This document shows positions 6,956 through 41,041 of a stretch of 64,000 nucleotides of DNA, piece after piece. The position numbers and the translations under genes were made by a program. The notes beneath the pieces were generated by a model. That model worked only from the letters and a program-made list of their open reading frames with translations. It made no database searches and had not been told where the DNA came from. The first letter of the stretch is position 1. Each line of letters starts with the position of its first letter. The stretch comes from Nemertoderma westbladi (lineage: Eukaryota; Animalia; Xenacoelomorpha), in assembly GCA_032718475.1 (NCBI GenBank), contig JAUCBJ010008464.1, positions 71,816 through 135,815 on the forward strand. Reading direction: 5' to 3'.

Positions 6956-6959
6956 TCTG

Positions 6960-10350: not shown

Positions 10351-13300
10351 TTACGTTGGGGAGTCCCTAGATGTTTGTTGGATTAGGGAGGTGGTCGTGG
10401 GAAGAGTATCTTGCCTTCCATAGTTTCCGGACAGTTCTCGGTCTCTTTCCAGTAAACATAAACGACCAACTGGGCGATTGAGCTGCTGTGTCTCGAAGAC
10501 AATTCCAGGTTTCCTCTTCGTCCTGGAATAGTGACGATAGAAACATCGCTTCAAATACACGACGGCCTTACAAAGCCGATTCCATGATCTATAGTGGTCC
10601 ATCGCTCCCGGCAGGAGAGGTGAGAGTCCCGGCGAGACGTCTGGTGTTCAAGATCTCCAGTCTCTCTCTCTGATCTCCACAACAGATCGGTTCGCGGTGG
10701 GGGAGTTTAGATCCACAGCGTCGTCCCTGGCAATGTGTAATACAGACAGATCTATCACGGGTTTAAATAACCTTGATTTACTCGTCCGGGTTTTAGGTTT
10801 GACTTTCTCCGCTCCCTTGGCTTGTCTAATCTCAGCCGTGGTAAGATGGGGAGGCCATTCATCTTCTTTACTTAGGAAGTCGGGTCCACCTAACCAGTCT
10901 GGAGTATCTGTCAGTTCTTGAGGAGTTGCTTTTCTGGAAGCGATGTCGGCTAGATTAATTGTCTTGGGGCAATGTCTCCATTGATCTACATTGGAGTTAA
11001 TATCGTCATTATCTGAGGAGTATGGTGTTCCCTCAGTTGGATCGTCTACCTCACTGCTCTCCACTTCCCATTCTCTTACTTGATATACCTGTTCTTTCGG
11101 TAATCTTTCCATGAGAGTTCTACGGGAAGGGCCAGTAAAGTACCAACCCACTCTAGTTCTTCCCGCATAAGCTTGTAGTGGTTGCGGTTGAGCAGGCCGT
11201 TTCTCCAATGTCTCGAGCGCTTCATGCGCGTTTTGACCGATGAGTATTTGCACTCCAGGGTAATCGGTGTTGAATCTAGGTATTTCAAGCTGCTGGGTGA
11301 AATCGTCCTCATCCCAGTTATAAGGTTCCACTTGGCTGGTAGCGAAGTTCTTTATCGCCACCATTTTTACTGACCTTATACTATGTTCTCCTAGTTCATC
11401 CTGGGGGGTAGACAACGCACCTACATAATAATCCGCTATTACTGTAGATTTCCAAACCTGCATAATTCCTGACATATTTAGCTTAGTTCGGAACTTGGGT
11501 TGTCCAGCAAAGATGTCTTCGGCTAGTTCTTTTTCGATGAATGTTCCTGTGCTACCGGAGTCAAGGAGGGCGTTCACTATATAACTCCTTTTAGGTCCGT
11601 GGACCCTTAACTGTACTACAGGAAATTCTCGGATTCCTACATTGGAAGTTGGCGCTTTCCAAGATGGTTGTCTGTCAGAAGTAGTTAGGGTGAGGTCGCT
11701 GTCTGTGTCTTTTTCATACGTAAGTGCTCGATACACTGCGGTATTTATCATGTAACAGGATTCATCTTCGTCGGAGAATTCATCCGTATAGAATCCTTCC
11801 ATCTCAGAACTTTGGTCAGTGTCGTTCACATCACTGAATTGGACATGTAGTTCGGAATCACTTACCTGACTCTGGCTGTTTCGCTCGAATTCAGTGTGCA
11901 ACAAGATATGATGTTTCGCACCGCACTTTGCACACCTTGTGTCGGAGTAACAGGTTCGCCGTTGGTGTCCTTGTCTGAGGCAATTATAAAACAACCGCTT
12001 ATCCCACATGACTTCCCGTCTCTCCGTTAATGATTTCTTTAGGAATTCATCACACATATTCAAACGGTGGGTCCCGTCACATAGCACACATTTCGGTTTG
12101 ATGTTACTTACCTTATTTTGAGTAACGTTGTGCACACTCGTTCTTTCTTCGGGCTTTCTTACCTGAATTATCTTAGGAGACGTAGGAGGGGTTTTTCTTA
12201 CCTGTTCTCTCCTGTCATTGGTTCGAGACCTGAATTTACTTACGTCTTTGGGCGTTTTGTTGACATAATAAGATCTTTCAGTGTCTTTCCCGCTGTCCTC
12301 TCCTTGAGAAGCCTGGCTTTCGCCGTCGTCGGTATAACACACTGGTGTTACCTTTCTCCTAGAAACGGATTTCTCACTTACCTTGTTTTCCGGTGTCTTC
12401 TCTCTGGACTGCTTTAGGAGCTGTAATTTCACTTCTCCATCTAAGAATGACATGAGATCAGCCATGGTAGGGTCTCGTCGTTGCTGTTCCATCATATATA
12501 ACACTTTCTTATCCCAGCGTGTACCTACTCCACCCTTCGGTAAAGTAGAGGCCACAGCTCCAATAACCATAGAACTCTGATATTCATGAGACTTACCTAG
12601 CCAATCTAATTATCTACAGATCTCCTGAATCTCATCGGAAAACTCTATAATCCCGCTGCTAATGAATTTTCGGGGCACTACCAATTTTGCATACAAATAC
12701 CTAGCTATGTTATTCCTATTACCATACCTGATGTTTAGGGTATCCCAAACTTGTCTTAATCCATCGGGATGTCCAATAAACTTTAACGCCATTAACTTGG
12801 GAGATCCTTCCAAGCACTCGATGAGGAATCTAAGCTTCTCTCCGTTTGATAGCACAGAGTTCTGTATGTTATCTTTGTAATATTCATTAAAAGGTAACCA
12901 TTTCATCTCATCTCCATTGAACTTGACGATCTCTCCCACCTTTACCGCTTGACGGGCTTCGGTTCTAGCCATTTGACGCGTAAAACTTTCTTGGGCCATC
13001 GTGTTATTTAATATCGAGTTATCGGTATATAAATTTCTCCGATTATTATCAAGTCTATATGGGATATCATTGTCAACAGGTTTATAATTACCCTTAATAG
13101 GGTTTACTATAGGAGTTTCCACTTCGCTAGCAGTATAGATGCGTGTAGGCTCCACACCTTGCGCATGAAATACTTCAGACCTAACAGGTTGACACATTGT
13201 TACAGGGGGTGGTGGTATACCCTTTTGTGTATTTACTAATTTATCGCGTTCTAACGCGATACTTTGCTGCACTTCTTGCAACTCTAACCTACTCTCTCTA

Positions 13301-15366
13301 ATTGTTCCCTTTAACTGCTGCACAGTCCCCTCCATCTCCTGGACTTGCTGAGAGGAGCGGGAACGGTGTTCCCTCAGCTGCCCGAGCAGGAGACCCATCT
13401 CCCGTCGTCCCTCATCTACCCACTCGACCGCAGAAGCGGGAGGCGCCAACGTTGTAGCGGGCGGACGAGGGACAACGGGCGACAAATCATTAATATTTCG
13501 CTCGGAGTCCAGGACATGAACATTTTCAAGGGTGGTTCTGTGGGGCACAGGTAGCTTAGTGCTGTGCAGAGGGAATTTAGAGGTAGGTTCAGGGAGTATA
13601 GGTGTCTCTATCACCGAAGGGGTGGCTTCGAGAACAGGCCTAATTATTTCAGACTCATCTACTATAGTAGGGAGTCTTTCTATGTTAATTATTTGGTCTG
13701 TGGGTTCTGTACTACCTAAGTTTGTGTTAGTTAGTTGCCTTCTGACAGCTGGGGGCAAATCAGGCAATTTCTGACGGTGGGACATTCTTCGACGTCTGCT
13801 TAGACGAGATCTATTTCCTCCTCCTTCAGGATCGGTGGTATCGCCTTCCTCAGATGATGTATATCCCTGTCTTTTGGGAGTTGATCGACTCATCATCTGC
13901 ATTTGACTAGCTGTTAACTGTTTATTTATGCAGTCTTGATTCTCCTGAATGTTTTCCAATTCTAGTTGGGTGGTTTCTTCCGATGCTCTCCGTTCTGCTT
14001 CTGCCACTGCCTCTGCCGCTGCCACTGCCGCCTTTCTTTCCGCTTCGGCCGCTGCCACTGCCGCCTTTCTTTCCGCTTCGGCTGCTGCCGCTGCCGCTTT
14101 TCTTTCCGCTTCTGCCTCTGCCGCTGCCGCTGCCGCTGCCGCTTTTCTTTCCGCTTCTGCCGCTGCCACTGCTGCTGCCACTGCCGCTGTCTTTCTGTCT
14201 TCTATACGTTTTTTCTTTACTTGTTCTTCTTGGACCCTAGTGATGCGGAGGCGTTCATCAAATTTAGCTTGGTTCGCAGCTCTCATATCCGCATCGATTG
14301 CGTCCAACACAAGCTTGGCTCCTTCACTATTAGGGCTAAGTCCATCCAGCCATCTCCTCAACTCTTCGTCACCTACAAAGCGTTGATAGTCTGACAGATA
14401 GATGTCAATAGCATCCCTCTTATGCGGTTTCTCTGCTGTCGCTTCACTTTCCACTTGGGAAAAGGTGGCGTCTGTTGATTCTCCAAGGGTTGAGCGCTCA
14501 TCTAACTGAGATTTCCACGGGGCAGTTCTTTGAACTTGGAGACTCACCCGCTGTAACCAAGTCTTTATGGCAACTTGCAACGACGTGTCTTGTCTTCTTT
14601 TCGAAGCCTCCTCAAAGGCCGATAGGATTAGTCTGATTCTTAGAATTCTTTCTCGAACTTGAAAAAGCAGCTCTACCTGCTCTTGAGGTCCTTGTGGTTG
14701 TCTAAACAATTGTTCCTCTAATCGCTCCATGGAGCTGAAGCATCCCTGTACGTATCCGGCTGCTGACCTCTTCCACACAGCTGGATCGCTGGTTTCCTTT
14801 GTCACTCCCATCCTGTGTATGTCTTCCCAGGCAGCTTCAGATAAGTCAAACGGGAGTCCGGGTCCGGGGAAGTTCCATTGCGACTCGACAATAGACTTCA
14901 GTTCTTCCCTTGTATATCCCGCATAACTATCCTTGGTCGATCGCTTACTTCTCGCCCAATCAATCTGGTGTTCCTCCACCGCAATCAATACCCTAGTGAG
15001 TACGGCTGCAGGAAGGATGAGAAGGGGATCCGAATAAACCACATCTGCCATCTTTGCTCCGCACTCAGGTGTCAGCTCTACAGTATCCGCACTACTGGAG
15101 CTGCCGGGCCACTGAGAAATAAGTTCTCGGCTCGCGGGTTGTTGCTGCTCCGCCGCCTCTTGGTCCCGCTTGACCTGAGCTCGAGTGCCTATGATAGACC
15201 TACGATGTTGGACTAGCCTAGGGTCTGATATTACTACTGGGGGAATGATCTTTCTTACAGTAGGAGGTGAGTTGAACTTCGGTCTCACATGTTCCACACT
15301 CCTGTCTGGGTCACAGATGGTCGTATCTAGGAGACTGTCTGACAGGTTTTGCTTTATGTCAGACAT
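10351..15366 (-). pseudogene. gag: BEL/Pao gag-protease with deleted pol (copy B)
   Basis: 918-aa and 640-aa ORFs are split by one nonsense codon (ICR*LDW versus ICRQLDW in copy C). BEL triple zinc knuckle ending CAKCGAKHHILLH, protease ALLDSGS, then RNase H end (QWRHCP..N.ADIASR) and pol C-terminus. Confidence 0.92.
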
Positions 15367-16866
15367 GTTTGTTTGTACAGTTGAATGCCTACTGCTATAT
15401 TACAGTTAAAGCAAGTCTAGTAATTCAGTAATTCAGTATCGCTGTTAGCTTAGTAATTGATTACCGATACTGCTACTCATTGTAGCGTGATATATATATA
15501 ATATATTAGAATACCGGTATGCTTATAGTATATATATAAGTATTATTACAGACTAGGTTTATCACAGAATACCGGTATAGAATTTCAGCACAAATATATA
15601 TAAATATATAATAGGCCTATCGTGAATACCGGTATACAGCTTACACTTATAATGTATATATATAAGTATAATTACAGACTAGAATTAATCACAGAATACC
15701 AGTATATAATTTAGCCTAAATTTATAGAAATAAATATAATAAGCCTATCGCGAATACCGGTATGTCAATTATTTTAAATAATTGAATTTCTGAATTTTTA
15801 GGGGTTACTTGGTTACTTTACTTACTTTATTAACGTTATTTGAGCAGTAGTCCAACTGATATTGAGACCTAATTGTTGTATGGCAGGCCTACTATTTATA
15901 AATCGTTTGAGTTGATTTATAATATATATACCCGTTTAATGGGTTTTTGTCAATATTTGAAATAAATGTTATTATTTCTGGGGGGAGTCACTACACAGAA
16001 GCTGTGCGCTCTCAGTGAAGTGCTACTTGTTGGACACTAAAACAAATAATTCTAATTTACCTAAGTTACTTAATACTACAAATTACGTACAATTTGGTGT
16101 GAGATTACAATCTCTAAATAAACACAAAAAATTACAAGTACGAAATTTTAGGGTAATTTTACAAGAAGTCTACAAACCAGCCTAACAAAGGGTTAGAATA
16201 TCTGGTTATTACAACGGACAGGGTACTACGGTATTTGAAAATAATAAGTAGTAGTAAATATACTGCGTTGTCCAGATAGGAAAAATACCACCGTCTGACG
16301 ACTTATAGCCGTATCGCTATAAGTACTACGTTATGTATCACGGAGTGTTCCTACCTAGAAGTTAATTACCGCGGTCTACCAGAACCAACGTGCCTATTAA
16401 CCACTTTAGAACACAAATATACTGCCTACACACTAATTACCTTCAGAAAGCACTGTACACTAAACCCTAAATTAGGTACAAGTACTTATACAACAAATAA
16501 TCAGTAGTTAAAAATACTTGAACAGCTAAAAGAACCACGGTATCTGCTGGAGTGACCGGGGCACAAAATCACCAGTCTTTACCTATGCCAAGCAGCCCTG
16601 ATGTAGTACCGGGGTTAGTTTAACTATAACGGTATATATAACAAGCACAATTACTGTAGGAATAAACTTGGGGATATGAATGTTGCGAATAATCGCATAA
16701 ACTCTTAATAATAAATATTACGCTACGCGTACAGACTACTCAAACAAAATGCAGACCAAATACTGACAGACTACTATCAAACCTAAACAAATTACGGTAT
16801 ATGCAGACTCCGAAATCCATGCAGACTCCGGTACTTCAGCTTTATTGCCTACCGCAATACAGAAGC

Positions 16867-16878
16867 TATATCTGTTAT
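16867..16878 (-). promoter_or_regulatory. Non-tRNA primer-binding site of copy B (ATAACAGATATA)
   Basis: Abuts the LTR end (...CGCGAACA), has no TGG, and is a perfect 12-bp reverse complement of LTR site 17407-17418. Confidence 0.8.
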
Positions 16879-17861
16879 TGTTCGCGCTTTTAGACCTTTA
16901 GCAGTTTAACCTGCCAAATTGGGATGTCTTCTAGATAATAAATCGACTTTAGCCTATGACGAGTATTTGATACACTACATTAGCCGAAGCCAGTCTATGC
17001 GCGACCATTCACCCGCTGGATATACCCGGGAGACTGGATTCGGAAGCTTAACCTTATTGCGGTGTAGGCCTACTGTATTATTCGACTGATCGTAATATAT
17101 AATCTCTGACAAATATTATTCACTTTCGGGAAATATTAACAGTTCCTTTAGGAACAACAACCAATACATGTAGTGCCTATGAAATAGCATTAGATTCACT
17201 TCAAAAACCACTTTAATGTAAGTCGCAATCGTTATATGTAACTGGTCTCTCTTACCTTCAGTATATCAAGAAGATTGAGGGTTTTGTAATTATTTATCGG
17301 TATTCCAAATATAATAATATTCCATCAACTGATATAATGAATAACCGACAGTAAATAGCAGTAAAAATGCGGTGTTTGTAGTTGACAATATGATTAGGTG
17401 AGTGAGATAACAGATATACGTTCTATAATTAAGCCTACTAATGTTGGGCTAAAGACTGAAAACACAGAGATTCCAAAGCCAGTCTTCTGGGCTCAGGACA
17501 AAATGTACACATTGACCCATAATGCATTGCGCGATTTCTCGGAGGTTTCTGTACAAAAAGCAGGAGAATCGCTCTGATTGGTTGACCGAACAAAGAAACA
17601 ACAGAGAACAAGGAAAAAAGCTACACGTGTACAGATCAGCTGTTAGCTGTCGTCATAGTAACTACACTGTTTCAAGAGGATTTCGCGTATTGTGACATAG
17701 AATTGCTAATTATGTCCGCTAAAGTACACATACAGAAGAAATGGCTTTTTATGTCCACTAAAACACCAGTACAGTAAGGATACGGCCTTTTATGCCTGTT
17801 AAACCAACTACAGAGTACTTTATGGGGAAAATAACCGGCTAATTCCGCAAAAGCTTTTACA
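16879..17861 (-). repeat. Copy B 5' LTR (983 bp)
   Basis: TGTAAAAGCTT...AAAAGCGCGAACA on the minus strand, same termini as the TSD-defined LTRs of copy C; contains a CCAAT box. Confidence 0.92.
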
Positions 17862-18515
17862 AAGGGAACGGTGGAGTGCTTGCAATGTGGTGGATTTCGG
17901 CTAAACAAATTCACTAGTAACTCCCGTGAGTTTTTGGAACGATCCTGGTAGAAGACCGAGGTGTTAAAGATCTGGATCTCATCAAGGACGATCTTCCAGA
18001 AACCAAAACACTTGGCTTAAAATGGGACACGGAGAGAGATATCGTGTTTTTCCAGTTAAAACAGCGAGATAATCCAGTTAGAACTAAACGGATTTGTCTA
18101 AGTATCCTGAGCACTTATTTCGATCCATTGGGATTTATTAGCCCAGTTATATTAGTTGCTCGGAGCTTAGTGCAACAAATGTGGCTCGAAAACCACTCGT
18201 GGGATGATCCACTTAAGGGAGAATTGCTAAAGAAGTGGATGAAATGGGAAGATTCTCTACCATCCATTGAGAACTTTATTATTTCCCGTTCATATTTTGG
18301 TAACGTTCTCCCCACATATTCCTATCAACTCCATGTGTTTGGAGACGCCAGCGATATGGGAATAGGTATAGTAGCCTACCTGAGGGTTGAAACTCCGGAT
18401 GGAATTAAAGTTGCCTTGGTCACCTCTAAGGCCTTGATAAACAACAAATTACGAGTTCCTCGAGCGGAGTTAAAGGCGGCTCTATACGCTACAGCCATCG
18501 GTCGGAATGTAACAG

Positions 18516-18924
18516 TAACAATGTGTTGGCAAGCTGTATTTTTCGAGGTGTTTGTTATTATACATTATATTATAAGAAGGGATCTAGGGGTCTTAACCTC
18601 GAATGATAAGTTTATTTTACCGAAAATAACTTATCTTTTATTGGCGCAATTGTAGGACTAATCCCATCACATGCGTACTTTTTAACCGGGTAGTGTACAA
18701 ATTTAGGAATCGCGTAATTTTTTTTTTTTTTTTTTTTTTTTCTTGAAATTAATATCTCATATCTCTCCAAACCACGTATGCGTTTCGACCTTACTGGGTC
18801 TCATCAGCGTGGTGTCGGATTCGAACCTGGGACCTCGAGGCGGAAGCCGAGACTACTTATTTTCGGTAAAATAAACTTATCATTCGAGGTTAAGACCCCT
18901 AGATCCCTTCTTATAATAAAATGT
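18516..18924 (-). mobile_element. Short retroposed insert with B-box, hammerhead motif, poly(A) and ~63-bp inverted repeat
   Basis: 12-bp TSD GGAATGTAACAG (18504-18515 and 18925-18936) interrupting pol; inverted repeat ~18567-18629 versus ~18857-18919. Confidence 0.8.
18771..18813 (-). ncRNA. Minimal type I hammerhead ribozyme motif (possibly degenerate)
   Basis: Minus strand reads ACCACG CTGATGA GACC cagtaa GGTC GAAA CGCATA CGTGGT: intact core, 6-bp stem I, 4-bp stem II, vestigial stem III. Confidence 0.8.
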
Positions 18925-21763
18925 GGAATGTAACAGAACAGATCGACTATCCACTGGAGAAAACTGTCTATTGGACTGATGCTTTACTCGTTCTGGAGTA
19001 TATAACAAATGAAGTCTGTCAGTTCAGCGTTTTCGTTACCAACAGAGTAGCCATTATACTTAGTCGCTCTAATGTAGATCAATGGAGACATTGCCCTGGG
19101 ACGATTAATCCAGCCGACATCGCTTCCAGAGGAACAACTCCTCAAGAACTGATAGATACTCCGGACTGGTTAGGTGGACCCGACTTCCTAAGTAAAGAAG
19201 AGCATGAATGGCCTCCTCATCTCACCACGGCAGAGATTAGACAAGCCAAGGGAGTGGAGAAAGTCAAACCTAAAACCCAGACGAGTAAATCAAAGTTATT
19301 TAAACCCGTGATAGATCTGTCTGTACTACAGATCTCTGGGGATGACGCTGTGGATCTTAACTCCCCCACCACGAACAAATCTGTTATAGAAATCAGGGAA
19401 AGAGACTGGAAATCTGGAACACCAGATGTCTCGCAAGGACTCTCCCCTCTCCTGCAGAGAGCAATAAATCATTATAGCTCCTGGAATCGGCTTTGCAAGG
19501 CCGTTGTGTATCTTAAAAGATGTTTCCATCATCACTATTCCAGGCCAAAGATCGCTAGTGATACCGCTACAATAATATCCGAAAAGGTCCATGCTATTAA
19601 AGACCTTCCCGCTTATAAAGTGTCTGATAGGTTTCTGAATGAGAAGATCAGTTACCAAGAGCATGAATATATCAATAAGCAGATACTGAGACTCCTGCAA
19701 TGCTATGAAGATTCCGATAAGTATTTCCTGTTGTTGAGAAATCCACAGATGCATTTGAGGGATCGTTTCTCTAGCACAATGATAGATGGGTTAATACGTG
19801 TCGGAGGGAGATTAACTAATGCTCCATTGTCCTTTGACACTAAGTTTCCCATACTCATTAGAAATCTTGAAATACAAATCAAGATGATTGTAGATGTTCA
19901 CAGTAGACTTTACCATGCTGGTAGAGAACTGGCTATTATTTCCATAAACCCCGCAGAGCTCTGAACCAAGTTCTTAGGAACTGTATACCCTGTAGGAAAG
20001 CATTCAGTAGGCCTTTAACACAGCGAGAGGCAGAATTACTTAGGGAACGAGTAAGCTTCTATGAACCACCCTTTACCAATACTGGGGTGGATTTATTTGG
20101 CCCTATTGAAGTATATCGTGCTAGGACTATAGTCAAGCGATGGTGTGTCATCTTTGTCTGTATGACTTGTAGAGCGATCCATCTAGATATGGTGAACGAT
20201 CTATCTACCAACAGCTTCATACTGAGTTTACGCCGACAGATCGCTCGTTTTGGGACTAGCAACACTATGAGATCCGACAAAGGAACGAACTTCATTGGCC
20301 AATAATGAGATCAAAGCTTACTTGAAAGATTGGAACCAAAGACAGGTGGACGATCAGCTAAGGATAACGGCATCTAGCTGGACCTTCAATGCCGCCGACG
20401 CCCCTTGGTGGGGAGGAAGTTGGGAGAGATTAATACGGAGTGTGAAGACCGCATTTCACTTTATAGTGCCGTGCCGCGCGTATCTCACTGACGAACTTTT
20501 GCGGACGTTAATGGAAGAAATGCCGCCTATCTTAACGAGAGACCGCTTATGCCAGTCTCATCGAGTCCCGACTCCCTAGAAGCGCTGACACCCACGCATT
20601 TCCTACTAAAGAAACCTGTAGCCATGCTCCCGTAATCGGAAATCACGGACGGAGACGAATACTACCGACAAACTTGGCAACTTATGCAGTTGTTATCCCG
20701 TCGTTTCTCTGACCATTTCGAAAAACATTATCTTCCTACACTACAACTTCGAACAAAGTGGTTTGCGCAGCAAGAAAACGTCAGCGCCGGAGACATGGTC
20801 CTTATTGTGGAATCAGATCTTCCACGTAAGAGGTGGCAGACAGGTCATATCATCGCGACTCATATATCCGATGATGGTTTAGTGCGATCGGTAAAACTCG
20901 TCGTCATGCGACGTAACTTTAAGAAACCTGGAATTGTATTCGAAACACAACAACTTAATCGCCCAGTTGGTCGTTTATGTTTACTGGAAAGAGACCGACA
21001 GTTATCCGGAAACTATGGAAGGCAAGATACTCTTCCCACGACCACCTCCCTAATCCAACAAACATCTAGGGACTCCTCAACGTAACAGCGTTTGGAGTGG
21101 GTGTGTGACTACATTATTTTATATATTTTTATCATTTTTATATTTATGTATGTATTATTATGTAATTTTATTATTATAATCGTTTTCTTTAATTTTATTT
21201 AGTAGAATAATATTTTAACGATTATTCAGTAGATTAGTGCAATATATATTCGTGTTTATTACTTAATTACTTAGCATTATATATTTCGTTTAATGGCGAG
21301 AAATAATTCATTTTCTGTTTCCTTACTGTCCGTATCATACTATAAATATGTGACTACAGTAAGATGAAATGTCCATACTTCTTAAAAGTACAATACCGTC
21401 CCTACTTTACTCAAGTATTATTGGTAAGTAGAGTATTAGGAATGCAATGTTCAGATCCTCGTGTCTCGGCTAAACCAAGCTCTGGGTAGACCTTGGAAAC
21501 GACTTGCCTCTTCTCACTGACATTGCTTCTTGCAATATTGCTCACATACCGTATATTAAATAATACATATAGTAGAATGATGTCCATTTAACAGTAGCGT
21601 AAAACGCAAAATAAATCTGTTAAACCCTTTGACCATCTGAAATTCTAGTCGATTAAGATATCGCGGCACCCACCGATATACTTGAAAGACAAAATTCTAG
21701 AATCAGTGGTTAACGTCCCCAAACATGTTCTGGAATAAATCGGTGCCCATCTTAAATATTAAA

Positions 21764-23437
21764 TCTATATATATAAATATCCTCTGTCTGTCTGTGAGTC
21801 TGTGAGTCTGTGAGTCTATGAGTCTGTGAGTCTGTCCAAGCTATACGCTCCGACACACGAGCACCAATCTGAGCGAATGATACATCGATCGAAAGCTCTC
21901 GTCCCGAGCACGTAAACTATCGCTATCTCGAGGCTTATTTTACGCGTTTGCTTGCGTGAATGCGTATTTTGTATTCGCTACAACATGTTGTGTGATAAAA
22001 TCTCAAAGTGATTCGAATATTCCTTTTGGCAGTACAGGCCTGGCAAAGCTGAGAGTTAGTTAGCAAGGCAGCTAGCTACTTGCAGACCAATCATAGGTGG
22101 CCTGCAGCAGGCTGGGTTGGTTAAGTAGTAATCTCAATAAATAGGACCCAGCAGGAGAGTGGAGTGGATCTACTGTGATTGGTTCTTGACTTACATTGGT
22201 AAGAACAAGCAGTAAATCTTAGATTAGCTTTTTTTCAGTTCACATATTGTTTATAATCATAAACACAAAATGATTCAATTATTCATTTTTGCAATGTACC
22301 GGATGGGTGCTAGCGAGGTAGGCCTAGCAGGTCGTCAGTCCGTCATCCTACAAGTTGGATCTTGACTCTATCATGTGCGTGCACCTATATAATGCAGACC
22401 ATCCTCAGCCCGTGAACATGAATTGTAAAGGCTATCTCGAGGCTGATTTTTTACACATTTACTTGATACTTGCATGAATGCGTCTTTGAGGAAAATTGCA
22501 TTATTCTGCAGTTGTTTTGTTATCGGAGAAATTACTGATCAGCAAGCAGGAAATTATAACAGCAGTTATTGCATCATCGTAACCACTCTGCTGACACTTT
22601 GCAGAATAAATTCTACCTGACCATAGCTGCGTGTTGGGAGGACGCCGACCAGTTTGCAGTTCTTCAGTCTGCCACTAGGAGGCGAAATGTCTGAAAGTGA
22701 AAATCTTATCCTATCTTGTTATTAATAATGATTTTTAGCTGAGACTTAGGTCCTTTACACAATATGTTTATAATGTTTTTTTTGCTGATACCAAGCAGAG
22801 TATACTACACCGTAGGGTGTGTATTTGGGCTTGGGGAGACGATGACTAATCTTCAGTTCCCCAGTCTGCCGCTATTAGGGGATGAAATGTCTGAATGAGG
22901 AAACCTACAATTTTGTTGTTTATGAATACTTTTTTGCTGATACTTGGCATTTGGCAGAGGACTACTACACCATAGTCGTCATGTTTGGGGAGGACGCTAA
23001 CCAGTGCATAATTATGCAGTCTGCCACTAGGGGGCGAAATGTCTGAAATTAAAACCTTCCATTTTAATACGATAGAGTTGCTGCAGTGACCTACTGCACT
23101 ATAGGTTATGTTTGCGAGGACGCTAACCACTACTCTGCAGTTATACAGTTTTCCACTAAGGGGAAAATATTACACACAGTTTAAACCTTTTCACATTTTA
23201 TTATTTGTAATCCATTGGAGGTGTTACTTGGAAGGTATCTACTACAACATAAAGCCTTATGTTTATTATTGTATGTACTGTAGCTGCAACTAAAACGGGA
23301 TCAGTCTGTTAGTCTTATGTAAAGTTTTGTTAAGTTAATTAATTAATTTATTTATGTTTGATATTGTCCATTGATTGATTGATTGTATAGAAGCTTGTGA
23401 ACTAGAAAGCCGTGGCCGAAGGCCACGGGCTTTCTAG
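21764..23437 (+). mobile_element. Non-autonomous Helitron
   Basis: A|TCTATATATATAAA start followed by a (TGAGTCTG)n microsatellite; 3' hairpin CGTGGCC-GAA-GGCCACG then CTAG|T; absent at the homologous site in copies B and C. Confidence 0.9.
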
Positions 23438-24482
23438 TATTTAATAAATATTTATAAAATCTGTTAAAACAAGTGTTATAATAGAGTAAATGCTGATAAA
23501 TTAACTCTAGAGAGTTTGTAAATCAAAAATCTGTTAAATTTTAGATCCTTTAAATTTCTAGTCAATTAAGATATCGTAGCATTTACCGATACTCTTAAAA
23601 AGACAAAATTTCGAGAATTAAGGATCCTAGTCCCCAGACATGTTCTGGAATAAAATTGTGTCTATTTTAATGTCAAATAATAAAATTTACGGAAATAAAT
23701 TTTAAATTCATATCCTCTCATGAATTTTATAAATTGTCATTTTATTTATAACAATTTATAACATTCCCAAAATTCAATTAATTAATAGATCATGGGAGCG
23801 GAGATTCACCATATTAAGTATATTAGTGTGCGAGAATCTCCAATGTATAGTCAATAACTGATAAAATTCATAAAATCATGTATAAAGGGGAAAATTGAAA
23901 ATTAAAGAATTACTATTAAATAGCATCCCAGATCTGTATGCATGAAAATTACCCTAATTCTACTGCTAGCTTTCCATAATGTCACCATAGCAACAACCAC
24001 GCTAGAATTAGAAGCGAGTTAAAAGAACAATAGAAAGCTTGCCCCATTGAATAGCATGCGGAATAAATAGCACCCTGCTAGTATCCAGGGATACATAATA
24101 ATAACGTGGCATTCTGGAAGGCACTTGACTAACAGACAAATGGCCCGAATGTGTACAATTTGTGACAGGAGTGTGGAATTTGTGTATTTATAGGTGAATG
24201 TTACTACTAAAGTGTGTTTACAGTAGCGAGTCGCAGTTGTGAAAGTTACCCTGCCTCTGTAGCAAGAACCTCCAGTAGTTCTAAGCCCTTGGGACGGACA
24301 GTGGAGTGACTCGTGCTGGTTATTGTTGTCGTTGTGTAGCTACTATGTTGGCAAAAGGCACAACGATGACAGTATATCAACGCTGAGGATCTTGCGCTGT
24401 CCGGGGGCATTGAGGTGGAGGCAGCGACGACCGCTGGCCTAAATATCATTAATTATAATATCGATAAACTCATATAGCAGCT

Positions 24483-26665
24483 ATGACTGAGTTAATAGAA
24501 GATGATCTTGGTATCATGGAGCGATATACCCTACCATTGCATTTAATAAGCGGCGACGCTAGTCAACCTACTACGGAGGACGATGGCCGTTATATCGAAC
24601 CGCCAATGTCAAAGGAACAGCTCACGCGTGAATTGGACTATAGAAAATTCACCGCTCGCTATACGCATCGTAATGGTACGTATATGGACTTCTTAACTAC
24701 TGGTCTTCCTATCGATTTACATGACACGGACGATGTAGATACCGAAAGGGAGATGATCCTATTTAATTATCATACCCAGCAGAGTCGGAATGATAAACTG
24801 AAAATCGAACACGAAAATTCTTTTCGAAATCGACTCGAAAGAGAAGACGTTGAAGAGCCAGATAAACGCAATGACTTCAACGAATATTTGGAATTCTTAA
24901 GAGAAACATATCTCAATGTGGCCAGTCAACAAAATCTAGAAACTTGATATCTTCAAGGTATACATCATAACCCTATGATAGAATTCAAACGACTCTATTT
25001 CACTATGATGTATCTTACTGCCGATCGACCGCTACCTGTTGTACCGGATAGCTTCGAACAGATGGAGGAATATTGTAAAACTGGAGAAAGATCACCAGCG
25101 TTTCCCCTACAAGACGTGCGTCTTTAGTATTATTGCGATGAATGCCCTAGACCCAACCAACAAACGGAAAGACATAAACATACGCGGAGACGTTGCGCTA
25201 AACACAGTTTTACTCACTATACTTACAGGAGTTTCGAGCGAAACTTGTTCGATGTATCACCCACGCTCGCTCGACTCAAACGATCCTTAAACAAACCTAT
25301 GATCAGAGTTCCGGAATACTCAGTCAGACCTCCTCATTCCCTAGTGAGACCTCAGACTCTTGATCCTAATAGTATGACGGATCCTCCTGAACTGTACTCA
25401 TTGTTCAAAGATCTAGTGTTACCAGAACAATTAGACGGTGGCACTCCGGTTGTGGGCTCCCTAGATATTCGCCCATCCTACCTAGCCGGATTGGGACACG
25501 GACATCTAATATCGCCGTTCAACCCATATAATCATCCCGGTTTAACCCCGATACAACCCATCACCGAGGTGGAGGAGAGCGTTGTACGAAACGCGTTAGA
25601 CGCTATTCGGCAAAAGATCGGAAAAGGAACCTACGATTGTTTAGACAAACGTAAATTGCAACAACAAGTCCAAGTGGCAAAAGAATTAGCTTTACCTCAG
25701 TTCGATCGGGAAATGCAGAATCTCGAAGAAGATATCGAACTCGGACGAACCTACTCTCTGTTTTTGGACGAACGCTTCCAATGACAAGCGGAGGAAAATC
25801 AGCTCGAGGAGAAGCACATCGAAATGGACGAGAGAGAAGAAGCAGCTTTAGCCCAGCCAGAAGCTCAAATCCGTATGACGGATCTCTATTCCAAAACCAT
25901 TATTCATCCTTCGATGGTTCCCATCGAAGTTCACAAACACTTCGCCACTGTACAACCCCAACCGGTTGATATCAACTTAAGATCTAGAGATCTTATCGCT
26001 GACGCTCCTATGTTACAACGTCCGCCAATCGAGGCTGCTCGTGTCGACGGTATACTCATTGAACCTCCTGACAATCGAGCGGATCTTGTCCGTGATATGG
26101 TACACGAGGTCAACCTACGCGCTAGACCTTTACTGAACTCATTTTATGGGATCAAAGACCACCCCCATTATGTCAATTTAACTCAATATTATATGGTGAA
26201 ACCGGAAGACCCTACACACAGTTTAAAGTTTCTACCATTGATAAATCCCACGGTGACTTGTTCATAAACTCGCATCCAGAGCTACAAGAAGTTCATAGAC
26301 GACCATATGAATATAAAGCCAGAGAACGCGAGTTGGAGAGAACCATCAAACCAAGGAAATTTCTCACTACTCACAGTCCACCTACCGCTCTCATGCAAAC
26401 GCCTCGTCAGGGACCAGTAAGAGCTGCTGTCCTGAAACGCGCTCTAAAGGTTGTTCGACCTCGTTCCACTGAGGTTGATATCGATCAACCGGGTACCTCG
26501 ACCGGCGGATACACTGACCGTAATCCTAAACCTTCCAATGCAATTGTATTGCACACCTCACCCAGGAGTTATAGCCCTCCTAGTAAAGTGGCTCGACCCA
26601 AAGAGAAAAGGACTCTTACTAGCCTCAAAAAACTTCGTAAACGCCGTTCACGTAAGAAGGACTAA
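24483..26665 (+). pseudogene. Accessory ORF3 of copy A/D, unknown protein (coiled-coil segment, basic C-terminal tail)
   Basis: Consecutive sense ORFs 24483-24947, 25039-25290, 25245-25784, 25824-26267 and 26258-26665 lie between pol and the PPT and are homologous in three copies. Confidence 0.75.
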
Positions 26666-26743
26666 TAGTTTAGAGTATTTTTGTATTTTAGAAACTGTGA
26701 TTTTTTATATTTTATAGACTTAAATCCCATTTTCTGGGAGCGG

Positions 26744-27842
26744 TGTAAAAGCTTTTGCGGACATAACAAGTCATTTTTCCGCAATGCGCAGAATACTCTA
26801 AAATAGCCCTAAATTTATCCAACTACGCGACGGGAAGGAATTAAAGCCAGTATGACGAAATCTGTCAGCTGATTTCTTGTGGACGTGGAATTTCTTTGTT
26901 CTGCCTTATTCAGCCAATCAGAGCAATTTTCCCTTTATGTCTGACAGAGGCCTATGGAAACTCGCGCAATGCATTACGGTCTTTGTTTACTATTTTTCTG
27001 AGCATCAGAACCTGCTCGGAATCTTCTGTGCTTCTGTGTAGAATTTTCAGACTTTGGCCTAGGAAACATCAGATGGCCTTGATTATAATAACGTAAATCT
27101 ATTATCCTACTTAATCACCGCATCACATTTCATCATTATCAACTACATTTCATAACTGCATAAGTAACACATACTGACAGTTCACCGCATTATTTTACTT
27201 CTGTTATTAATTGTTGTTATATTAATGGATATTGGTGTTATATTTGGAGAATACCGATAAATAATCATAAACCCCTCAATCTTCTTAATTACTGAGTTAA
27301 GAGGAACAGGTTTTTCCGGTAGCAACTGCGACTTAAATTATAGTGGTTTTTGTGTGAATTAAATGCTATTTCATAATCCCTACGTGTGTCAGTTGCTATC
27401 CTCCTTATATATGATCAAATTTAGTGAAGGTCGGAAGATCAGTGCTAAGTAGTGTGAAGTAGTGTGAAGTCGTGTGAATTAGTGTGAAGGTTAATAAAGC
27501 ATCTCCTAAAGAATGCGCTATTTACAAAACTCTGAGGCCATCTAGTTGTGATTAGTATAAGTCATAAGTCATTTTATACTTAAAGCGCCACGCCTTAAAG
27601 GAACTGTTAATATTTCCCCGAAAGTAAATATATTTGTCAGAGATTATATAGTAACGATCAATCGAATAATACAGTAGGTCTACACTGCAATAACTCTCAA
27701 GGAATCCGAATCCAGTCTCCCAAATCGTGGGTGATAGGTCGCGCACGGACTGGCTTCGGCTGATGTAACTTCAGTACACTAGATAATTGATATAGGCTAA
27801 AGTCGATTTATAAACAAGAGGACAACTAAAATTGGCAGGTTA
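26744..27842 (+). repeat. Copy A/D 3' LTR (lacking the last ~30 bp)
   Basis: TGTAAAAGCTTTTGCGG directly after the PPT; CCAAT box; U5 homologous to B and C up to ttggcaggtta. Confidence 0.9.
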
Positions 27843-28904
27843 GGGGAGACTGGATTCGGGTGCTTTGAAGTTATTGCGTTGCAGACCTACTGTATTATTC
27901 GATTGATCGTTACTATATAATCTCTGACAATATTATTCACCTTCGGGGAAATATTAACAGTTCCTTTAGGACGTGGCGCTTTAAGTATATAAACAGAGTT
28001 ATGACTTATATTAAACACAACAAGATGGCTACTGATTTTCGTAAATAGCACATTCTTTAGGAGATGATTTATTATCTGTCACACTGCTGCATACGATTTC
28101 ACACTGCTGCACACTGATCTGCCGACCGTCACTGAATTTGACCATATATAAGGAGGATAGCAACTGACACATGTAGGGATTATGAAATAGCATTTAATTC
28201 ACACTAAAACCACTATAATGTAAGTCGCAATTGCTACCGGTAACCGGTCCCTCTTACCTTCAGTAATCAAGAAAATTGGGGTTTTATGATTATTTATCGG
28301 TATTCTCCAAATATAACAACATATCCATCAACATATAACAATTAATAACAGACAGTAAACAGAAGTAAAATAATGCGGTGATAGTCAGCCAGTATCGGTA
28401 ATACCGGTACGCAGGTGCCAAGTTCAGTAGTTGAGTTGAGTGTGGCCCAGTTGTTATGGTTTGTTGCACAGTTGCACAGTGCAGTCAGCCAGTTGACAAG
28501 ATAATAGATTTACGTTCCTATAATCAAAGCTGTCTAATGTTGGCCAAAGTCTGAAACTTCTACAGAAGCACAGAAAAATTCCAAAGCCGATGTTCTGAGG
28601 CTCAGGAAATGGTAAACACTAACACTGAATTGCGTGGGTTTCTGTAGGCTCCTTTCAACGCAAAGTGAAAATCGCTCTGATTGGCCGAACAGAACAAAGA
28701 GAAGTTCCATGTGTACAGTCTTTAGAGTATTAAGCGCATTGCGGTAAAGTAAGGCACGGTATACTGCGGGGAAAATGGCTTGTTATGTCCGCTAAAGCAC
28801 CCCACGGTACATTGCGGAGAAAAATGGCTTGTTATGTCCGCTAAAACAACTAAACAGTTCATTGCGGAGAAAAATGACTTGTTATATCCGCAAAAGCTTT
28901 TACA
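27843..28904 (-). repeat. Inverted, 3'-truncated LTR of a fourth family member (E)
   Basis: Begins TGTAAAAGCTTTTGCGG on the minus strand at 28904; reverse-complement homolog of 26744-27720; no PPT in the flank. Confidence 0.88.
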
Positions 28905-29329
28905 GAGTGTATTGGATTTGGCACGAGTTGGGAGGTTAAAGTTCGAGAGCAAAACTCAATCAATACACCATATCCTGGAATTCGGATTATAGTGTCGCAC
29001 CAGTATCTCAGTAACATGGTTCGGATTTTTATATGTTCGCTGTGAAATGTTTCTAAACGGTAAGAAAAATTTAGAAATTTTCAATTTTGTTTATTAAACC
29101 GATTTACTACGAACACACCGTAATGATGACGAATGTAGGCAACCGAACCGGGAAGGCCCATTACGCCTTATTCGCCTTATACAGAAATATATACAAATAT
29201 AGAAACACCAATATATACATATAGTGTATAAATATAGTTTAAATATATAGTATATATTGTAAATATAGTGTATAAATCTATAGTATATAGTGTATCAAAA
29301 TATCGATATAATATTATCAGGCGACTACA

Positions 29330-35424: not shown

Positions 35425-36030
35425 CTACTAGGATCGGCATGCTGCATTGCAGCTGCATTTTTAAGAATGCTATGCCGGCTTGTCGACAAAATTGCGCCGC
35501 CGCAACTCCCTATCACCCATGACATTTGCTAGATCATCCGCATCTTCAAGGCCAGTGTCCTTTAAGATGCGTCTCAAGAAAGTCATGGGCTGTCCACCAC
35601 GCTTATTCACTCCATGAGGCTGCCAAAGTACAAGATTATGCACTGGTTGGTCCTCACGGCGAAAGCAATGTCCTGCAAAGCGGAGGCGATTTTGTTCTAG
35701 TGTCAAGCTTGGGGGAACCAAAGAGACACCTCCAATGTTATATAGTGTCTGGTTGGAGATGTGTGCATTGTACTTGACACAATGAACCCGGCGTAGCATT
35801 CTTGTGAATGTGCCATCCAGAGATTTGGTGTTCTCAGCAGTTAGAGCCCAGCATGGACTCCCATTGAGGAGTACTGGAACTACTGCTGCTCTAAATAATC
35901 GGACCTTAAGTTTCCGATTATTTCTCGGTGACTTCCAAATCCTGGAAAGCCTATTCAAGGCTGCCCATGCCTTTCCCTTACGTATTCGAAGGTCCTCATC
36001 TGACTTCCGGTGAGTGATCCACCTAGGTGA
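35425..36030 (-). mobile_element. Second RTE-like LINE 3' fragment, adjacent to (GATA)n
   Basis: LKVRLFRAAVVPVLLNGSPCWAL, RLRFAGHCFR, LVLWQP. Confidence 0.85.
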
Positions 36031-36719
36031 TCCTAAGAGAGGTGATTCATCTATCTATCGATCTATCTATAGATATATAGATAGATGGATAGATATATAG
36101 ATATATATGGATACATTATGTAAAAACAATAACAAATACACCAATCAATGTATATAGGTTTTGTCCAACATAACATATAGGATTAGGCCTACCCCTAAAG
36201 CTTTGCAGCTTATTTCCAAGAGGGTCCTTAATGTTACTTAAGATACAAATACAATATTAAAATACAATACAAAAAGTTTTATTTGGAGTGATAGAAATTT
36301 ACCTGTAAACAAGGTTAAGGAAATATTTAAGAAAGAAAAAACTCCCGGATATAAACTTCTAATGAGATCCTTAGAGTTAGAACCCACGGATCCAAGTAAA
36401 CTGAAGGATCGTATTTTAGATAAAACCATTAAGTGATACGAAATTTGAAACCTACAGTACAATAATAAACCCGTCATTAAAACGATTTATATTTTATTTT
36501 TATATTATACTTATGTATAGGGTTGCGGAATGTCTACTTCCCCAAAGTAGAATACTGTACTGTAGGTATGGGCGGATTAGTGTAAAATCAAGTTGATATA
36601 GGATATTCAGTGGGAAGATATAGCGTAGTTTATAGACAATTCCAGAACTTTTTGATATTTTTTTAAGTATGTAATAATAATTATTTTATTAAATTAAGTC
36701 TTCTTCTATCTGTTTCTGT

Positions 36720-38143: not shown

Positions 38144-38308
38144 TGTGAATGAGGATTAGCGGGAGATTTGAACTATGTTTTACATGTGTAAGCTTGACAG
38201 TATTAGTGGTACAGTATGGTACAGTAGTCAGACAGTAAAGGGATACCAGTACGGTATTACCTAGTGCAATATGCTTTACAATATGCTTGTTGTTATATCG
38301 CATTAACA
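38144..38308 (+). repeat. Copia 5' LTR
   Basis: Near-identical to 55336-55500; preceded by CAATG. Confidence 0.96.
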
Positions 38309-38318
38309 TGGTAGCAGA
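38309..38318 (+). promoter_or_regulatory. Copia PBS, complementary to the initiator tRNA-Met 3' end
   Basis: TGGTAGCAGA immediately after the LTR. Confidence 0.85.
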
Positions 38319-38582
38319 AGCCAAACCACAGGGTGTTGATAATGGTACCAGTGTCTGGGCTATAACATACCTGAATTAATGTCGGAGATAACGTTTAATT
38401 TAAAGTACTGGTACAGAAATTAAACTTCAAGACATATTGTCAGTATCCTGTTATATCAGTATATTGTTAGATTGTTATCCAGCGGGAAATAAACGTATGG
38501 TACCGGTACTGTATACCAAACAATCTAAATACCAATATACCGATACGTATAAGACTGTAAGATATAGATAATAACTAATGCA

Positions 38583-39782
38583 ATGGATCAATCTACGATT
38601 GGGCCTAATACAAGTAATAATAGAGTTAATGTTAAAAATCCACCACCACTTAGAGAAGACCTATCTTATGAAAATTGGGTCCGAGAATTAGAAATATGGC
38701 AAGACGCGACGGACATTCCGAAAACTCGGCAGGGACCCACCGTTTTCCTGAGTTTAACTGGCGTCGCCAGTGAGGCGATTCTAGAGATCTCCCGGGATGA
38801 ATTAAAAGGTAAAGATGGAGTAAATCGTATCATAGAGAAACTCGATTCCTTGTATTTAAAAGATAAGGCCATACGGGCATTCCACTCTTATGATAAATTC
38901 TGTAGTTTTAGACGACCCACAGACTCCAATATCACAGATTTTATAATAACTTTTGAGCGAAACGTAAATAAATGTAAGGCGCTTAATATGATTCTTCCAG
39001 ATGGGGTTTTAGCCTATCAACTATTGAAATGCGCAAATTTAGATGATACCAAAAACCAATTAGCGTTAGCAACGGTCGGCGAGCTAACCTATGATAATAT
39101 GAAAAAGCAAATACTGAAATTATTCGTTGATGTTTCGCCTCAGTATGTAAATAGTAGTAGCAGAGATACGGATATTAAAATAAAATCTGAACCGATATTT
39201 GCTGCTTCGGTCGAACAGGATACCGGAACTTGGGATTCAGAGGATATTGAATGGGATTATGAAACTGATTGTTACTATGGAAATTCATATTACAGGGGGG
39301 GTTATCCACGAAGCAGCGGAAGGTTTAGTCGCAGGCCAAGAATAGCCAGATACATAGTCACTAACAATAGGAGACCTCAACGAGGAACTGTCACTTCCTA
39401 TCGGGTAAACGCGCCGAAAGCTGCAGGAACTTTGCGATTAAATCCTCCAGATCAGTACGGCAGACCTACACAATGTGGTTGCTGCATGTCGATTTATCAT
39501 TATGAATCCGATTGTAAAGAATCACCAAAAAGTACCGAATATAAGTCCGCTCTCTTTAACACTGTGAACATTGAAAATGAAGACAAGCTTCAAATTGACA
39601 ATATAACACTTTTCACCGACGCCGATCTTGTCACTAAAAATCATCTTCTGTCAGAAACTCTCAACTGTGCTATTATTGACACGGGCTGTACAACGACTGT
39701 CGCTGGAGAGACATGGCTGAGATGCTACATTGAGTCTTTAAACTGTGTCGATAAACGAGATATAGTTTATGAGGACAGCAAT
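38583..39782 (+). CDS. gag: Copia gag-pol, 5' part (gag, zinc knuckle, protease start)
   Basis: YENWVRELEIW...KTRQGPTVFLSL, CGCCMSIYHYESDC and protease IIDTGC; continues in frame at 51859 once copy C and one TSD are removed. Confidence 0.92.
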
Positions 39783-41028
39783 TGTAAAAGCTTCTGTGGG
39801 ATCTAACTGGCCCCTTTTGCTTCGCAATCCAGTTTCCCCCCAGGGGCTGGAATACTCTAAAAAGGTTCTCTAACTGTATATATATTCCCCTCGCCCGCAA
39901 GGTACCGTTACAGGTGTTTTAACGGACATAAAAGTCATTCTGCTATATACGTGTTTTGGCGGACATGGTAAGGCAAAAAACCTGTAATGCACCAACTACC
40001 TTTCACAGCTTAGCCGTGATGATTCATATTACGACATCTAACAGCTGGTTGCTGACATGGAAACAGCCATTGGATGCATGGTTCTTTGTTCGGCTTGAGC
40101 CAATCAGAGCGATTTTTCCTGTCGACGTGTAGCTTTTCGGTCGATCATAAGGAGAGTGTTCAGTCTTACTGCTTTTACTTGATACTTTGTTGTTATTGCT
40201 GTCTAAGCCAGAAACACCGGCTTTTTGGGAAGAACTCTAGTAAAACTGCTTAAATTATCGAAAGTATAAACTGTTACCTTAACAAATCAATAACTCACTA
40301 ATTAACATGCTCACTTAATTTAATTGCATTAATCATATTGTTTGTACTGTTATTTTACCGTCAGTTATTAATTGTACCTATTTGTTGATGGAAATATTGC
40401 TCTTTGGATAATACGGATAAATCACCCAAATTCCCAATTTTCTTGATACACTACAGGTTAGAGAGACCGGCTATACATAACAATTGCGATTTATATTAAT
40501 GTGGTGTGTATTGAATCCAATGTTATTTAGCAGACCCTACGTGAGTCAATTGCTGCTCTCTTTATGTGTGATCAAATATACTGACGGTCGGCAGAATAGT
40601 GTGTATGATTGTGATTGGTAACAAAGTATTTCCTAAAGAATACGTTTTATACTTCAATCATAAGCAGTATCGTTGCGTTTTAGTATAAGTCTTAGTTCTG
40701 TTTAGATAGATAGAGCGCCACGTCCTAAAGGAACTGTTAATATTTCCCGAAAGCCAATAATATCTGTCAGAAATTAATTATTAACGATCTATCGAATAAT
40801 ACAGTAAGTTTACACTGCAACCTTACACTGCAATAATAAAATTTAAGCATCCGAATTCAGCCTCCCGGGTGTAGATCCATCGGGTGAATGATCGCGCATG
40901 GGCTGACTTCGGCTAATGTTTTGTGTATTAGCATAAAATATTGTCGTATGCTAAAGGTGTTTTTATTAACTAAAAGACATATAAATTTTGGCAGGTTAAA
41001 CTGCTAAAGGTCTTCAAAAGCGCGAACA
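39783..41028 (+). repeat. Copy C 5' LTR (1246 bp)
   Basis: Direct repeat of 50611-51853, differing by one substitution and one short local replacement that I could see. Confidence 0.97.
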
Positions 41029-41041
41029 GTAACAGTTTATA
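41029..41041 (+). promoter_or_regulatory. Non-tRNA primer-binding site of copy C (GTAACAGTTTATA)
   Basis: Abuts the LTR, has no TGG, and is a perfect 13-bp reverse complement of LTR 40265-40277 (TATAAACTGTTAC). Confidence 0.82.

Follow-up and report, generated by a model that had tools for sequence, protein, structure and literature searches.

What does a BEL/Pao retrotransposon carry between pol and its 3' long terminal repeat (LTR) when the open reading frame (ORF) found there does not resemble env? This question is raised by a 64,000-nucleotide (nt) stretch of the xenacoelomorph Nemertoderma westbladi (GenBank assembly GCA_032718475.1, contig JAUCBJ010008464.1, positions 71,816 to 135,815, forward strand), hereafter the window. 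It holds four pieces of one LTR family, which we call A, B, C, and D and which Pfam places in BEL/Pao (DUF1759, 8e-12; Peptidase_A17, 5e-34; DUF5641, 6e-21). A preliminary description made from the letters had pointed to a large accessory ORF, ORF3, after pol. We found that both ends of ORF3 are clearly under purifying selection and that the pieces retained by the copies have no env features. With a confidence just short of even, we read ORF3 as an accessory gene whose product may bind RNA in the nucleus and, in trans, serve the RNA of the element itself.

ORF3 is retained in part by B, C, and D. In all three, it starts with M(T/S)ELIEDDLG (ATG at D 24483, C 49095, and B 8719) and ends with KKL(R/H)KRR(S/P)(R/C)KKD and a stop (D 26665, C 50532, and B 7360), about 80 nt ahead of the 3' LTR, so that alignment confirmed the shared start and the shared K/R-rich tail seen in the preliminary description. 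The spacer between the pol stop and ORF3 measures 1,624 nt in C and about 1,650 to 1,720 nt in D without its Helitron-like insertion, in agreement with the earlier figure of about 1.6 kb. As had also been noted, each copy has its own internal deletions. Block alignment showed that D 24483-24842 is common to the three copies, that D 24843-24907 and 25065-25833 occur in D and B, and that D 25833-26250 occurs in D only. The tail (D 26252-26665) is kept in D and C and, in B, just from 26508 on. The Pro-rich middle of D amounts to about 470 codons, part of which is present in B, and a 217-codon block with three zinc knuckles (C 49470-50119) is confined to C. Because D is broken at about 26250, its tail and middle lie in different frames. 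Contigs covered every ORF3 bin in all four sequencing runs, and D's middle is therefore not private to D. At the break itself, one contig of run X4 continues 27 letters past 26248, and one of run X5 begins 65 letters before 26256, each with sequence unlike D; therefore, the break is not common to other copies. In public contigs, we also found the first deletion of B and the second pol deletion of C, together with several other deletions within ORF3.

The coding capacity of these pieces is well above that of the alternative frames. Over 589 codons, stops number 3 in D frame 24483-26249, versus 31 to 39 in the other five frames; for the middle alone, the N-terminal frame has 3 stops versus 23 to 30. 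In C, frame 49487-50122 is free of stops, versus 8 to 18 elsewhere. These counts are so far below those of the other frames that chance is a poor explanation for the open frames. We then compared B, C, and D pairwise, using the nonsynonymous-to-synonymous rate ratio (dN/dS) by the Nei-Gojobori method and, as a second test, the ratio of 0-fold to 4-fold site changes. For the N-terminal block, dN/dS was 0.15 (D/C), 0.25 (D/B), and 0.22 (C/B), against 0.67 to 1.89 in shifted frames, and the site ratio was 0.22 for D/C (P = 1.9e-5; C/B, P = 0.009; D/B, P = 0.085). The tail yielded a dN/dS of 0.10 for D/C and 0.47 for D/B (51 codons; interval, 0.19 to 1.32), with a D/C site ratio of 0.21 (P = 3.4e-10); in the last 51 codons, the basic end, the site ratio was 0.22 (P = 9.8e-4). 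For comparison, dN/dS was 0.27 in gag, 0.26 in pol, and 0.51 to 1.24 in the noncoding spacer, and noncoding controls had site ratios of 0.51 to 3.03, with 1 of 12 reaching P = 0.019. Neutral evolution, which the preliminary description had raised as an objection, thus does not hold for the two constrained ends.

Next, we examined the predicted protein. The N terminus is acidic. The middle contains a CxxC..H.H..C..H cluster at residue 218, two stretches with 15% and 12% proline, and a charged stretch, probably helical, in which no more than 4 of 8 a/d positions are hydrophobic, a weak heptad pattern; the middle is therefore Pro-rich, as first described, and this charged stretch is what had been called a coiled coil. 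The C knuckles have the forms CX2CX4H-X10-C, CX2CX5HX4C, and CX2CX4HX4C, and the tail is basic and P/S/T-rich, with the conserved K/R-rich end. Hydropathy scans of all of the parts seen bore out the absence of a signal peptide (the start is acidic, and the best 9-residue hydropathy is 1.02) and of a membrane segment (top 19-residue Kyte-Doolittle values of 0.65, 0.78, and 0.06 in the three pieces). The pieces kept by B, C, and D matched no fusion-protein or env family in Pfam or the PDB, and no known env or described BEL ORF was matched in these or the protein searches.

Those searches returned no significant homologue of ORF3. With the C block, phmmer against 1.84 billion proteins gave two matches, one to a generic knuckle repeat (P0001) and one that was false and inflated by repeats (P0002); against longer proteins, none of 1,072 candidates held for the C block, and none of 7,863 held for D's 594 codons. 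The ESM Atlas returned only generic zf-CCHC clusters, under 0.9, for the C block and nothing for the N terminus. There was nothing above cutoff for ORF3 in Pfam, NCBIfam, or PHROGs, nothing in a PDB search with the D piece, and nothing in viral contig scans, and 0 of 59 pattern matches to the C block in metagenome contigs were confirmed. The best PDB match to C knuckles 2 and 3 was yeast Air2 (2lli; E = 0.03), and Pfam zf-CCHC_3 stayed below cutoff at E = 0.09 to 0.16. Air2 (2lli, 3nyb) has the same tight CX2C..H..CP-X4-6-CX2CX3GH spacing; however, it has five knuckles and ORF3 has three, and the scores are weak. The element's Gag carries its own triple Cys-His box. We rejected the idea that the C knuckles duplicate it, since they match it only at E = 0.11 and are not spaced like it.

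A metagenomic survey provided one comparable gene. An RNase H alignment scan of metagenome contigs gave 458 BEL loci, of which the best 80 were taken; 44 of these have an integrase end, and 20 of the 44 extend at least 1,500 nt beyond it, several being near duplicates. When 15 ORFs were run against Pfam, most knuckle ORFs proved to be Gag, and one locus, L071, had an unannotated sense ORF. The post-pol knuckle ORFs of L006, L024, L032, and L079 were rejected because they encode the Gag of BEL or Copia elements. Of the best 80 loci, 1 thus has a comparable non-env ORF in this position. As a separate observation, the BEL/Pao polyprotein of L058 (527-6877) continues in frame into the start of a Baculovirus-F-like env (Pfam Baculo_F, 1e-6).

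L071, an apparently complete BEL/Pao element, lies on a circular contig of 10.8 kb. Its gag-pol is intact (2,337 codons), and after a spacer of about 500 nt comes the sense ORF (8752-10809 and 1-396) of about 755 amino acids (aa), which ends before a presumed LTR whose limits are not fixed. Like ORF3, it follows pol in the sense orientation, shares the knuckle spacing, lacks a membrane segment, and ends in a K/R-ended tail before the LTR; it also has a KKRRK motif, three knuckles, and an S/P/R-rich tail. Its N terminus, however, is a DEDDy-like domain (ExoI-like SFDFEW and, later, KVG..D and Y..HDA), whereas that of ORF3 is an acidic, Pro-rich region. The exonuclease-like region has human EXD2 as its best PDB match (E = 0.11) and no Pfam match. 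The L071 and C knuckles align at 26% identity, a score matched by 7 of 2,000 full shuffles and by 218 of 2,000 with Cys/His fixed, and for the post-knuckle part alone, 921 of 2,000 shuffles were as good. D's 594 codons did not align with the L071 ORF (97 of 500 shuffles were as good). When the 2,525 ORFs of the 80 loci were scanned for the spacing pattern common to C and L071, 1 ORF and no Gag had it, although the pattern was written after both had been seen. A profile of C plus L071 again had Air2 as its best PDB match (E = 0.16), and single-sequence AlphaFold models of the C block and the L071 ORF reached a pLDDT (predicted local distance difference test score) of 33 each, the alignment being too shallow for a usable fold. 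L071 pol is 36% identical to that of the window, ranks 33 to 69 among 47 to 80 loci, and has no supported tree grouping. Given these caveats, we think that the two knuckle modules are, on balance, probably homologous, a judgment in which position and design count for more than the score. The unknown origin given for ORF3 in the preliminary description therefore stands as far as described proteins go, with the rider that L071 has a similarly built ORF with knuckles spaced like those of Air2.

In its primer site, the family also departs from the standard description of BEL/Pao elements. Neither B nor C has a tRNA-type site, and no TGG lies within 57 nt. Instead, the primer position of C is the exact reverse complement of 13 nt of its LTR (40265-40277), and that of B is the exact reverse complement of 12 nt of its own LTR (17407-17418); complementarity of this extent was reached by 2 (C) and 1 (B) of 5,000 shuffles. 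Each site matches the other copy's LTR over just 7 to 8 nt, and therefore both sides changed together. The pairing partner lies about 760 nt upstream of the primer site. Self-pairing of more than 6 nt was found in 0 of 22 direct-repeat rows from the 80 metagenomic loci, whose repeat ends are not always true LTR ends; L071 has a tRNA-type TGG primer site candidate. A primer site with such compensating changes has the signature of self-priming of the Tf1 type (described in PMC4600332), here predicted for a BEL/Pao family.

How might ORF3 be expressed and act? The preliminary description had noted a conserved TAGCAG just before the ATG, and it is indeed identical in B, C, and D. No other candidate acceptor is free of upstream ATGs; use of the sites within an invariant 41-nt block farther upstream would leave two or three. 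That block is the longest invariant run of the spacer (reached in 0.7% of 5,000 site shuffles), and both it and a 28-nt block at 23779-23806, noncoding and likewise invariant in the three copies, are candidates for an acceptor, a promoter, or an RNA element. We propose that ORF3 would be translated from a subgenomic RNA spliced to TAGCAG, with an internal promoter as the alternative to splicing. The basic tail would direct nuclear import, the middle would be a flexible scaffold, and the Air2-like knuckle array would bind unspliced genomic RNA, shield it from nuclear decay or retention, and so allow its export, as CERV does for Cer1 and Rev does for human immunodeficiency virus. ORF3-less copies such as C would still move, with helper copies supplying the protein. 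Copy C is young, with only 11 substitutions between its LTRs, and it nevertheless lacks the ORF3 middle and most of pol; therefore, ORF3 is dispensable in cis.

Air2 is an RNA adaptor of TRAMP/exosome. A broader proposal, which we regard as doubtful, is that distant BEL/Pao lineages share a class of third gene, with Air2-like knuckles, a basic tail, and in some cases a DEDDy exonuclease, which would mimic or antagonize nuclear RNA surveillance (TRAMP/exosome-type adaptors) and let oversized self-priming genomes avoid decay and multiply to copy numbers in the thousands.

Several observations weigh against a single nuclear RNA-binding protein made from a spliced message. TAGCAG lacks a pyrimidine tract, and GTAAG, the candidate donor in the leader, is conserved no better than its flanks. 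Nuclear location and RNA binding are predicted from motifs, zinc knuckles are generic, and the Air2 match is weak. In the selection tests, the middle (D/B dN/dS, 0.54; site ratio, 0.61; P = 0.067) is not distinguishable from noncoding controls, and the knuckle block, present in C alone, offers no pair for dN/dS. Furthermore, none of the copies B, C, and D joins the middle to the knuckle block, the two do not overlap, and an in-frame stop (49484-49486) lies five codons into C's private block. Since no copy joins them, the knuckles and basic tail may not share a protein with the N terminus. The single ORF of about 1,000 aa first proposed accordingly stays a proposal: the pieces sum to 943 aa (589 + 217 + 137), which is a minimum and presupposes one ORF.

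Other explanations must be weighed against the same evidence. ORF3 could belong to an exonuclease-knuckle family like that of L071, with a DEDDy 3'-5' exonuclease in the stretch lost by B, C, and D that would trim the 3' ends of element RNA, primer, or host small RNAs. The order of the L071 ORF (DEDDy-like motifs, three knuckles, and K/R-ended tail), the rarity of the shared spacing pattern, and the DEDDy ORF3s published for rotifer LTR elements (PMC5408684) are consistent with this. However, no window piece has an ExoI-like motif (these pieces do not include what would lie between the counterparts of D 26250 and C 49470), the D piece does not align with the L071 ORF, and the knuckle likeness is marginal once Cys/His are fixed and lost beyond the knuckles. 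The pattern was also devised with both sequences in view, L071 pol is not close to that of the window, and its exonuclease has no Pfam match; we consider this explanation unlikely. The missing joint could instead mean two genes, or a gene split by an intron, with separate spliced messages for two proteins, one acidic and of at least about 600 aa (N terminus and middle), the other made up of the knuckles and the basic tail. The in-frame TAG five codons into the C block could then be a splice acceptor, the spacer has several conserved acceptor-like sites, and the L071 ORF resembles ORF3 in its 3' design only. Yet C's retained sequence has no ATG ahead of the first knuckle, a single stop is unremarkable in a nonautonomous copy whose tail also has a frame change, and D and C each reach the break without a terminator or new start, which leaves this arrangement rather unlikely.

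The knuckles and basic tail are also features of nucleocapsids, and Cer19-ORF2 has been proposed to be one (PMC7084138). ORF3 might thus encode a second, free nucleocapsid-like chaperone that anneals or packages genomic RNA in the cytoplasm or particle, its tail binding RNA and not importin; the long-range pairing of the primer site with the LTR would be one substrate. Because Gag already has a triple Cys-His box, the ORF3 knuckle spacing is not Gag-like, and L071 has a similar knuckle ORF despite its TGG candidate, we find such a role improbable. A decayed env, or host DNA carried neutrally, is the explanation that we hold to be very improbable. ORF3 does occupy the env position, a hydrophobic 26-codon ORF lies upstream of it (23942-24022), and part of the gene is absent from the copies. 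Nevertheless, purifying selection acts on both ends and extends to the final codons, the place of the anchor in env; there is no membrane segment; and no env match was obtained, whereas a control locus gave Baculo_F at 1e-6. The 26-codon ORF, present in all three copies and signal-peptide-like in D, is not supported as a signal-peptide exon; its differences between copies are mostly amino acid changing, and it is probably not coding.

The nuclear RNA-binding reading can be set beside known elements. The ICTV (International Committee on Taxonomy of Viruses) profile of Belpaoviridae gives gag, pol, and sometimes env, a length of 4.2 to 10 kb, and a tRNA-Arg/Gly primer site (PMC8742986), and env is the only extra gene that the accessible text of de la Chaux and Wagner mentions (PMC3118150). 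The window family differs from that profile in its 1.6-kb distance between pol and ORF3, its primer site, and its length; copy C spans 12,071 nt despite having lost most of pol. Env-bearing BEL-Pao elements such as Tas and Atlas virus are described as having the same DUF1759/Peptidase_A17/DUF5641 makeup and a third region between pol and the 3' LTR (PMC8742986; bioRxiv 10.1101/2021.11.23.469668), but the retained parts of ORF3 have neither a signal peptide nor a membrane segment and match no fusion protein. The preliminary statement that extra BEL ORFs are typically env-like agrees with the ICTV description; it does not cover Cer19, for which a non-env zinc-knuckle ORF has been published. Cer19-ORF2 of Caenorhabditis elegans (C38D9.2, F15D4.5) is reported as a separate, expressed non-env CCHC-knuckle gene in a DUF1759-bearing element (bioRxiv 10.1101/825315). 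The distance between its knuckles is about 18 residues, which is that of BEL Gag, whereas in ORF3 it is 5 to 6, and by the text order of the supplement, Cer19-ORF2 stands before gag-pol (PMC7084138), whereas ORF3 follows pol, so that the two are set apart by description.

CERV is described as a spliced, nuclear, Cys-rich accessory protein needed for the export of Cer1 genomic RNA, and like ORF3, it combines a basic import motif with a Cys-rich module in an LTR retrotransposon (PMC10309623). However, Cer1 is a Ty3/gypsy element, and CERV shares its 5' part with gag, has a C4-type finger, and has an experimentally supported function (PMC10309623); the likeness is an analogy, and we claim no homology. 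Rotifer Juno and Vesta have a non-env ORF3 after pol with DEDDy-like motifs of the kind seen in L071's ORF, but we found no knuckle array described for them ("zinc" is absent from the main text of PMC5408684), and the window pieces have no nuclease motif. Non-env extra ORFs have been reported in rotifer (PMC5408684), plant (PMC7264820), and nematode LTR elements. In the open literature consulted, we found no account of a BEL/Pao element with a knuckle or exonuclease ORF after pol; Repbase, GyDB, subscription papers, and bioRxiv supplements were outside that search, and an earlier mention is possible. Within this scope, what is new is a post-pol non-env ORF3 with zinc knuckles in BEL/Pao. A selected non-env gene of 900 or more codons would make this lineage a "complex" retroelement, and how unspliced RNA evades host surveillance on its way out of the nucleus is understood for very few LTR retrotransposons. 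If the L071 link is true, ORF3 would represent a widespread, unnamed accessory family overlooked by annotation pipelines for want of a Pfam match.

Table. Features of the ORF3-bearing BEL/Pao family in the 64-kb window
Feature	Position	Strand	Remarks
ORF3 N-terminal block, copy D	24483-24842	+	Acidic; in B, C, and D
ORF3 middle, copy D	24843-26250	+	Cys/His cluster, Pro-rich stretch, and charged, probably helical part; interrupted by stops (24945, 25125, and 25782)
ORF3 tail, copy D	26252-26665	+	Basic, P/S/T-rich; ends KKLRKRRSRKKD
ORF3 N-terminal block, copy C	49095-49469	+	Alignment, dN/dS
ORF3 knuckle block, copy C	49470-50119	+	Three knuckles, aromatic-rich post-knuckle segment; in frame with tail
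ORF3 tail, copy C	50120-50532	+	One frame change near 50340
ORF3 remnant, copy B	7360-8719	-	No counterpart of D 24908-25064 or D 25834-26507; frame changed and stopped at several points
TAGCAG candidate splice acceptor	24475-24480	+	2 nt ahead of ATG; identical in B, C, and D
Invariant 41-nt block	24187-24227	+	B, C, and D; holds TTTATAG and TTTACAG; candidate acceptor or cis element
Primer position, copy C	41029-41041	+	Exact reverse complement of LTR segment (13 nt)
Primer position, copy B	16867-16878	-	Exact reverse complement of own LTR segment (12 nt)
Copy A	4411-6956	+	Leader and 5' part of gag
Copy B	about 6960-17861	-	ORF3 remnant, pol deletions
Copy D	about 17930-27843	+	pol remnants, ORF3, 3' LTR
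Copy D pol remnants	17930-21085	+	RNase H/Peptidase_A17 to integrase end/DUF5641 (Pfam)
Helitron-like insertion, D only	21764-23437	+	5' TC, 3' hairpin and CTAG; between A and T
Copy D polypurine tract (GGGAGCGG) and 3' LTR	26736-27843	+	79 nt past ORF3 stop
Copy C	39783-51853	+	LTR to LTR; most of pol deleted
Copy C LTRs	39783-41028 and 50611-51853	+	11 substitutions between them

Copy C has a 1,246-nt LTR with TG..CA ends, a polypurine tract, and a 5-bp target duplication (GCAAT). Across the copies, protease, RNase H, and integrase occur in that order, and no copy keeps the reverse transcriptase core. B and C have one deletion in common, which runs from the protease region's end into RNase H, and differ in their second pol deletions; both copies are nonautonomous. 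From orientation and junctions, A and D are likely one element split by B. The closest pol relatives of the family are just 36 to 41% identical, and in a quick RNase H tree, the window element sits on a long branch without supported placement; the family is therefore poorly sampled in databases. In its host it is abundant, with 53,759 contigs of run X1 mapping to the 10-kb D stretch. Sequencing runs containing that stretch come from 4 studies, and no RNA run is on record among them. Run X4, which may be RNA, covers the spacer and pol as well as ORF3 and is therefore uninformative on expression.

Several smaller observations concern these copies. In C, the gag-protease frame is open across both pol deletions (1,431 codons). 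B (10648-15399) and C (43175-47470) have one pol deletion in common, and their differences are mostly silent in gag (dN/dS, 0.27) and in the ORF3 N terminus (0.22), a pattern that points to either a pol-less lineage with gag and ORF3 under selection or recombination with helper copies. The Gag N terminus is very long (43208-45160, about 650 aa ahead of DUF1759), with Ala/Glu/Arg repeats that vary in number by copy. D has a private 421-nt insertion in RNase H (18504-18924) flanked by a 12-nt repeat. Its Helitron-like insertion is nonautonomous, has a microsatellite-like 5' end, sits in a 160-nt tandem duplication of the spacer, and has low contig depth in all four runs. A second LTR of the same family (27844-28907) lies inverted, tail to tail against the 3' LTR of D.

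Copy C is nested in a Copia element (38144-55500), between that element's gag and protease. The Copia element has 165-nt LTRs (99% identical) and the primer site TGGTAGCAGA.., which resembles the GalEa site as described in PMC3587641. Elsewhere, the window contains tandem arrays of 31-nt (562-1512) and 36-nt (62177-62419) units and, at 35470-36054, a tail fragment of a reverse transcriptase like that of long interspersed nuclear elements.

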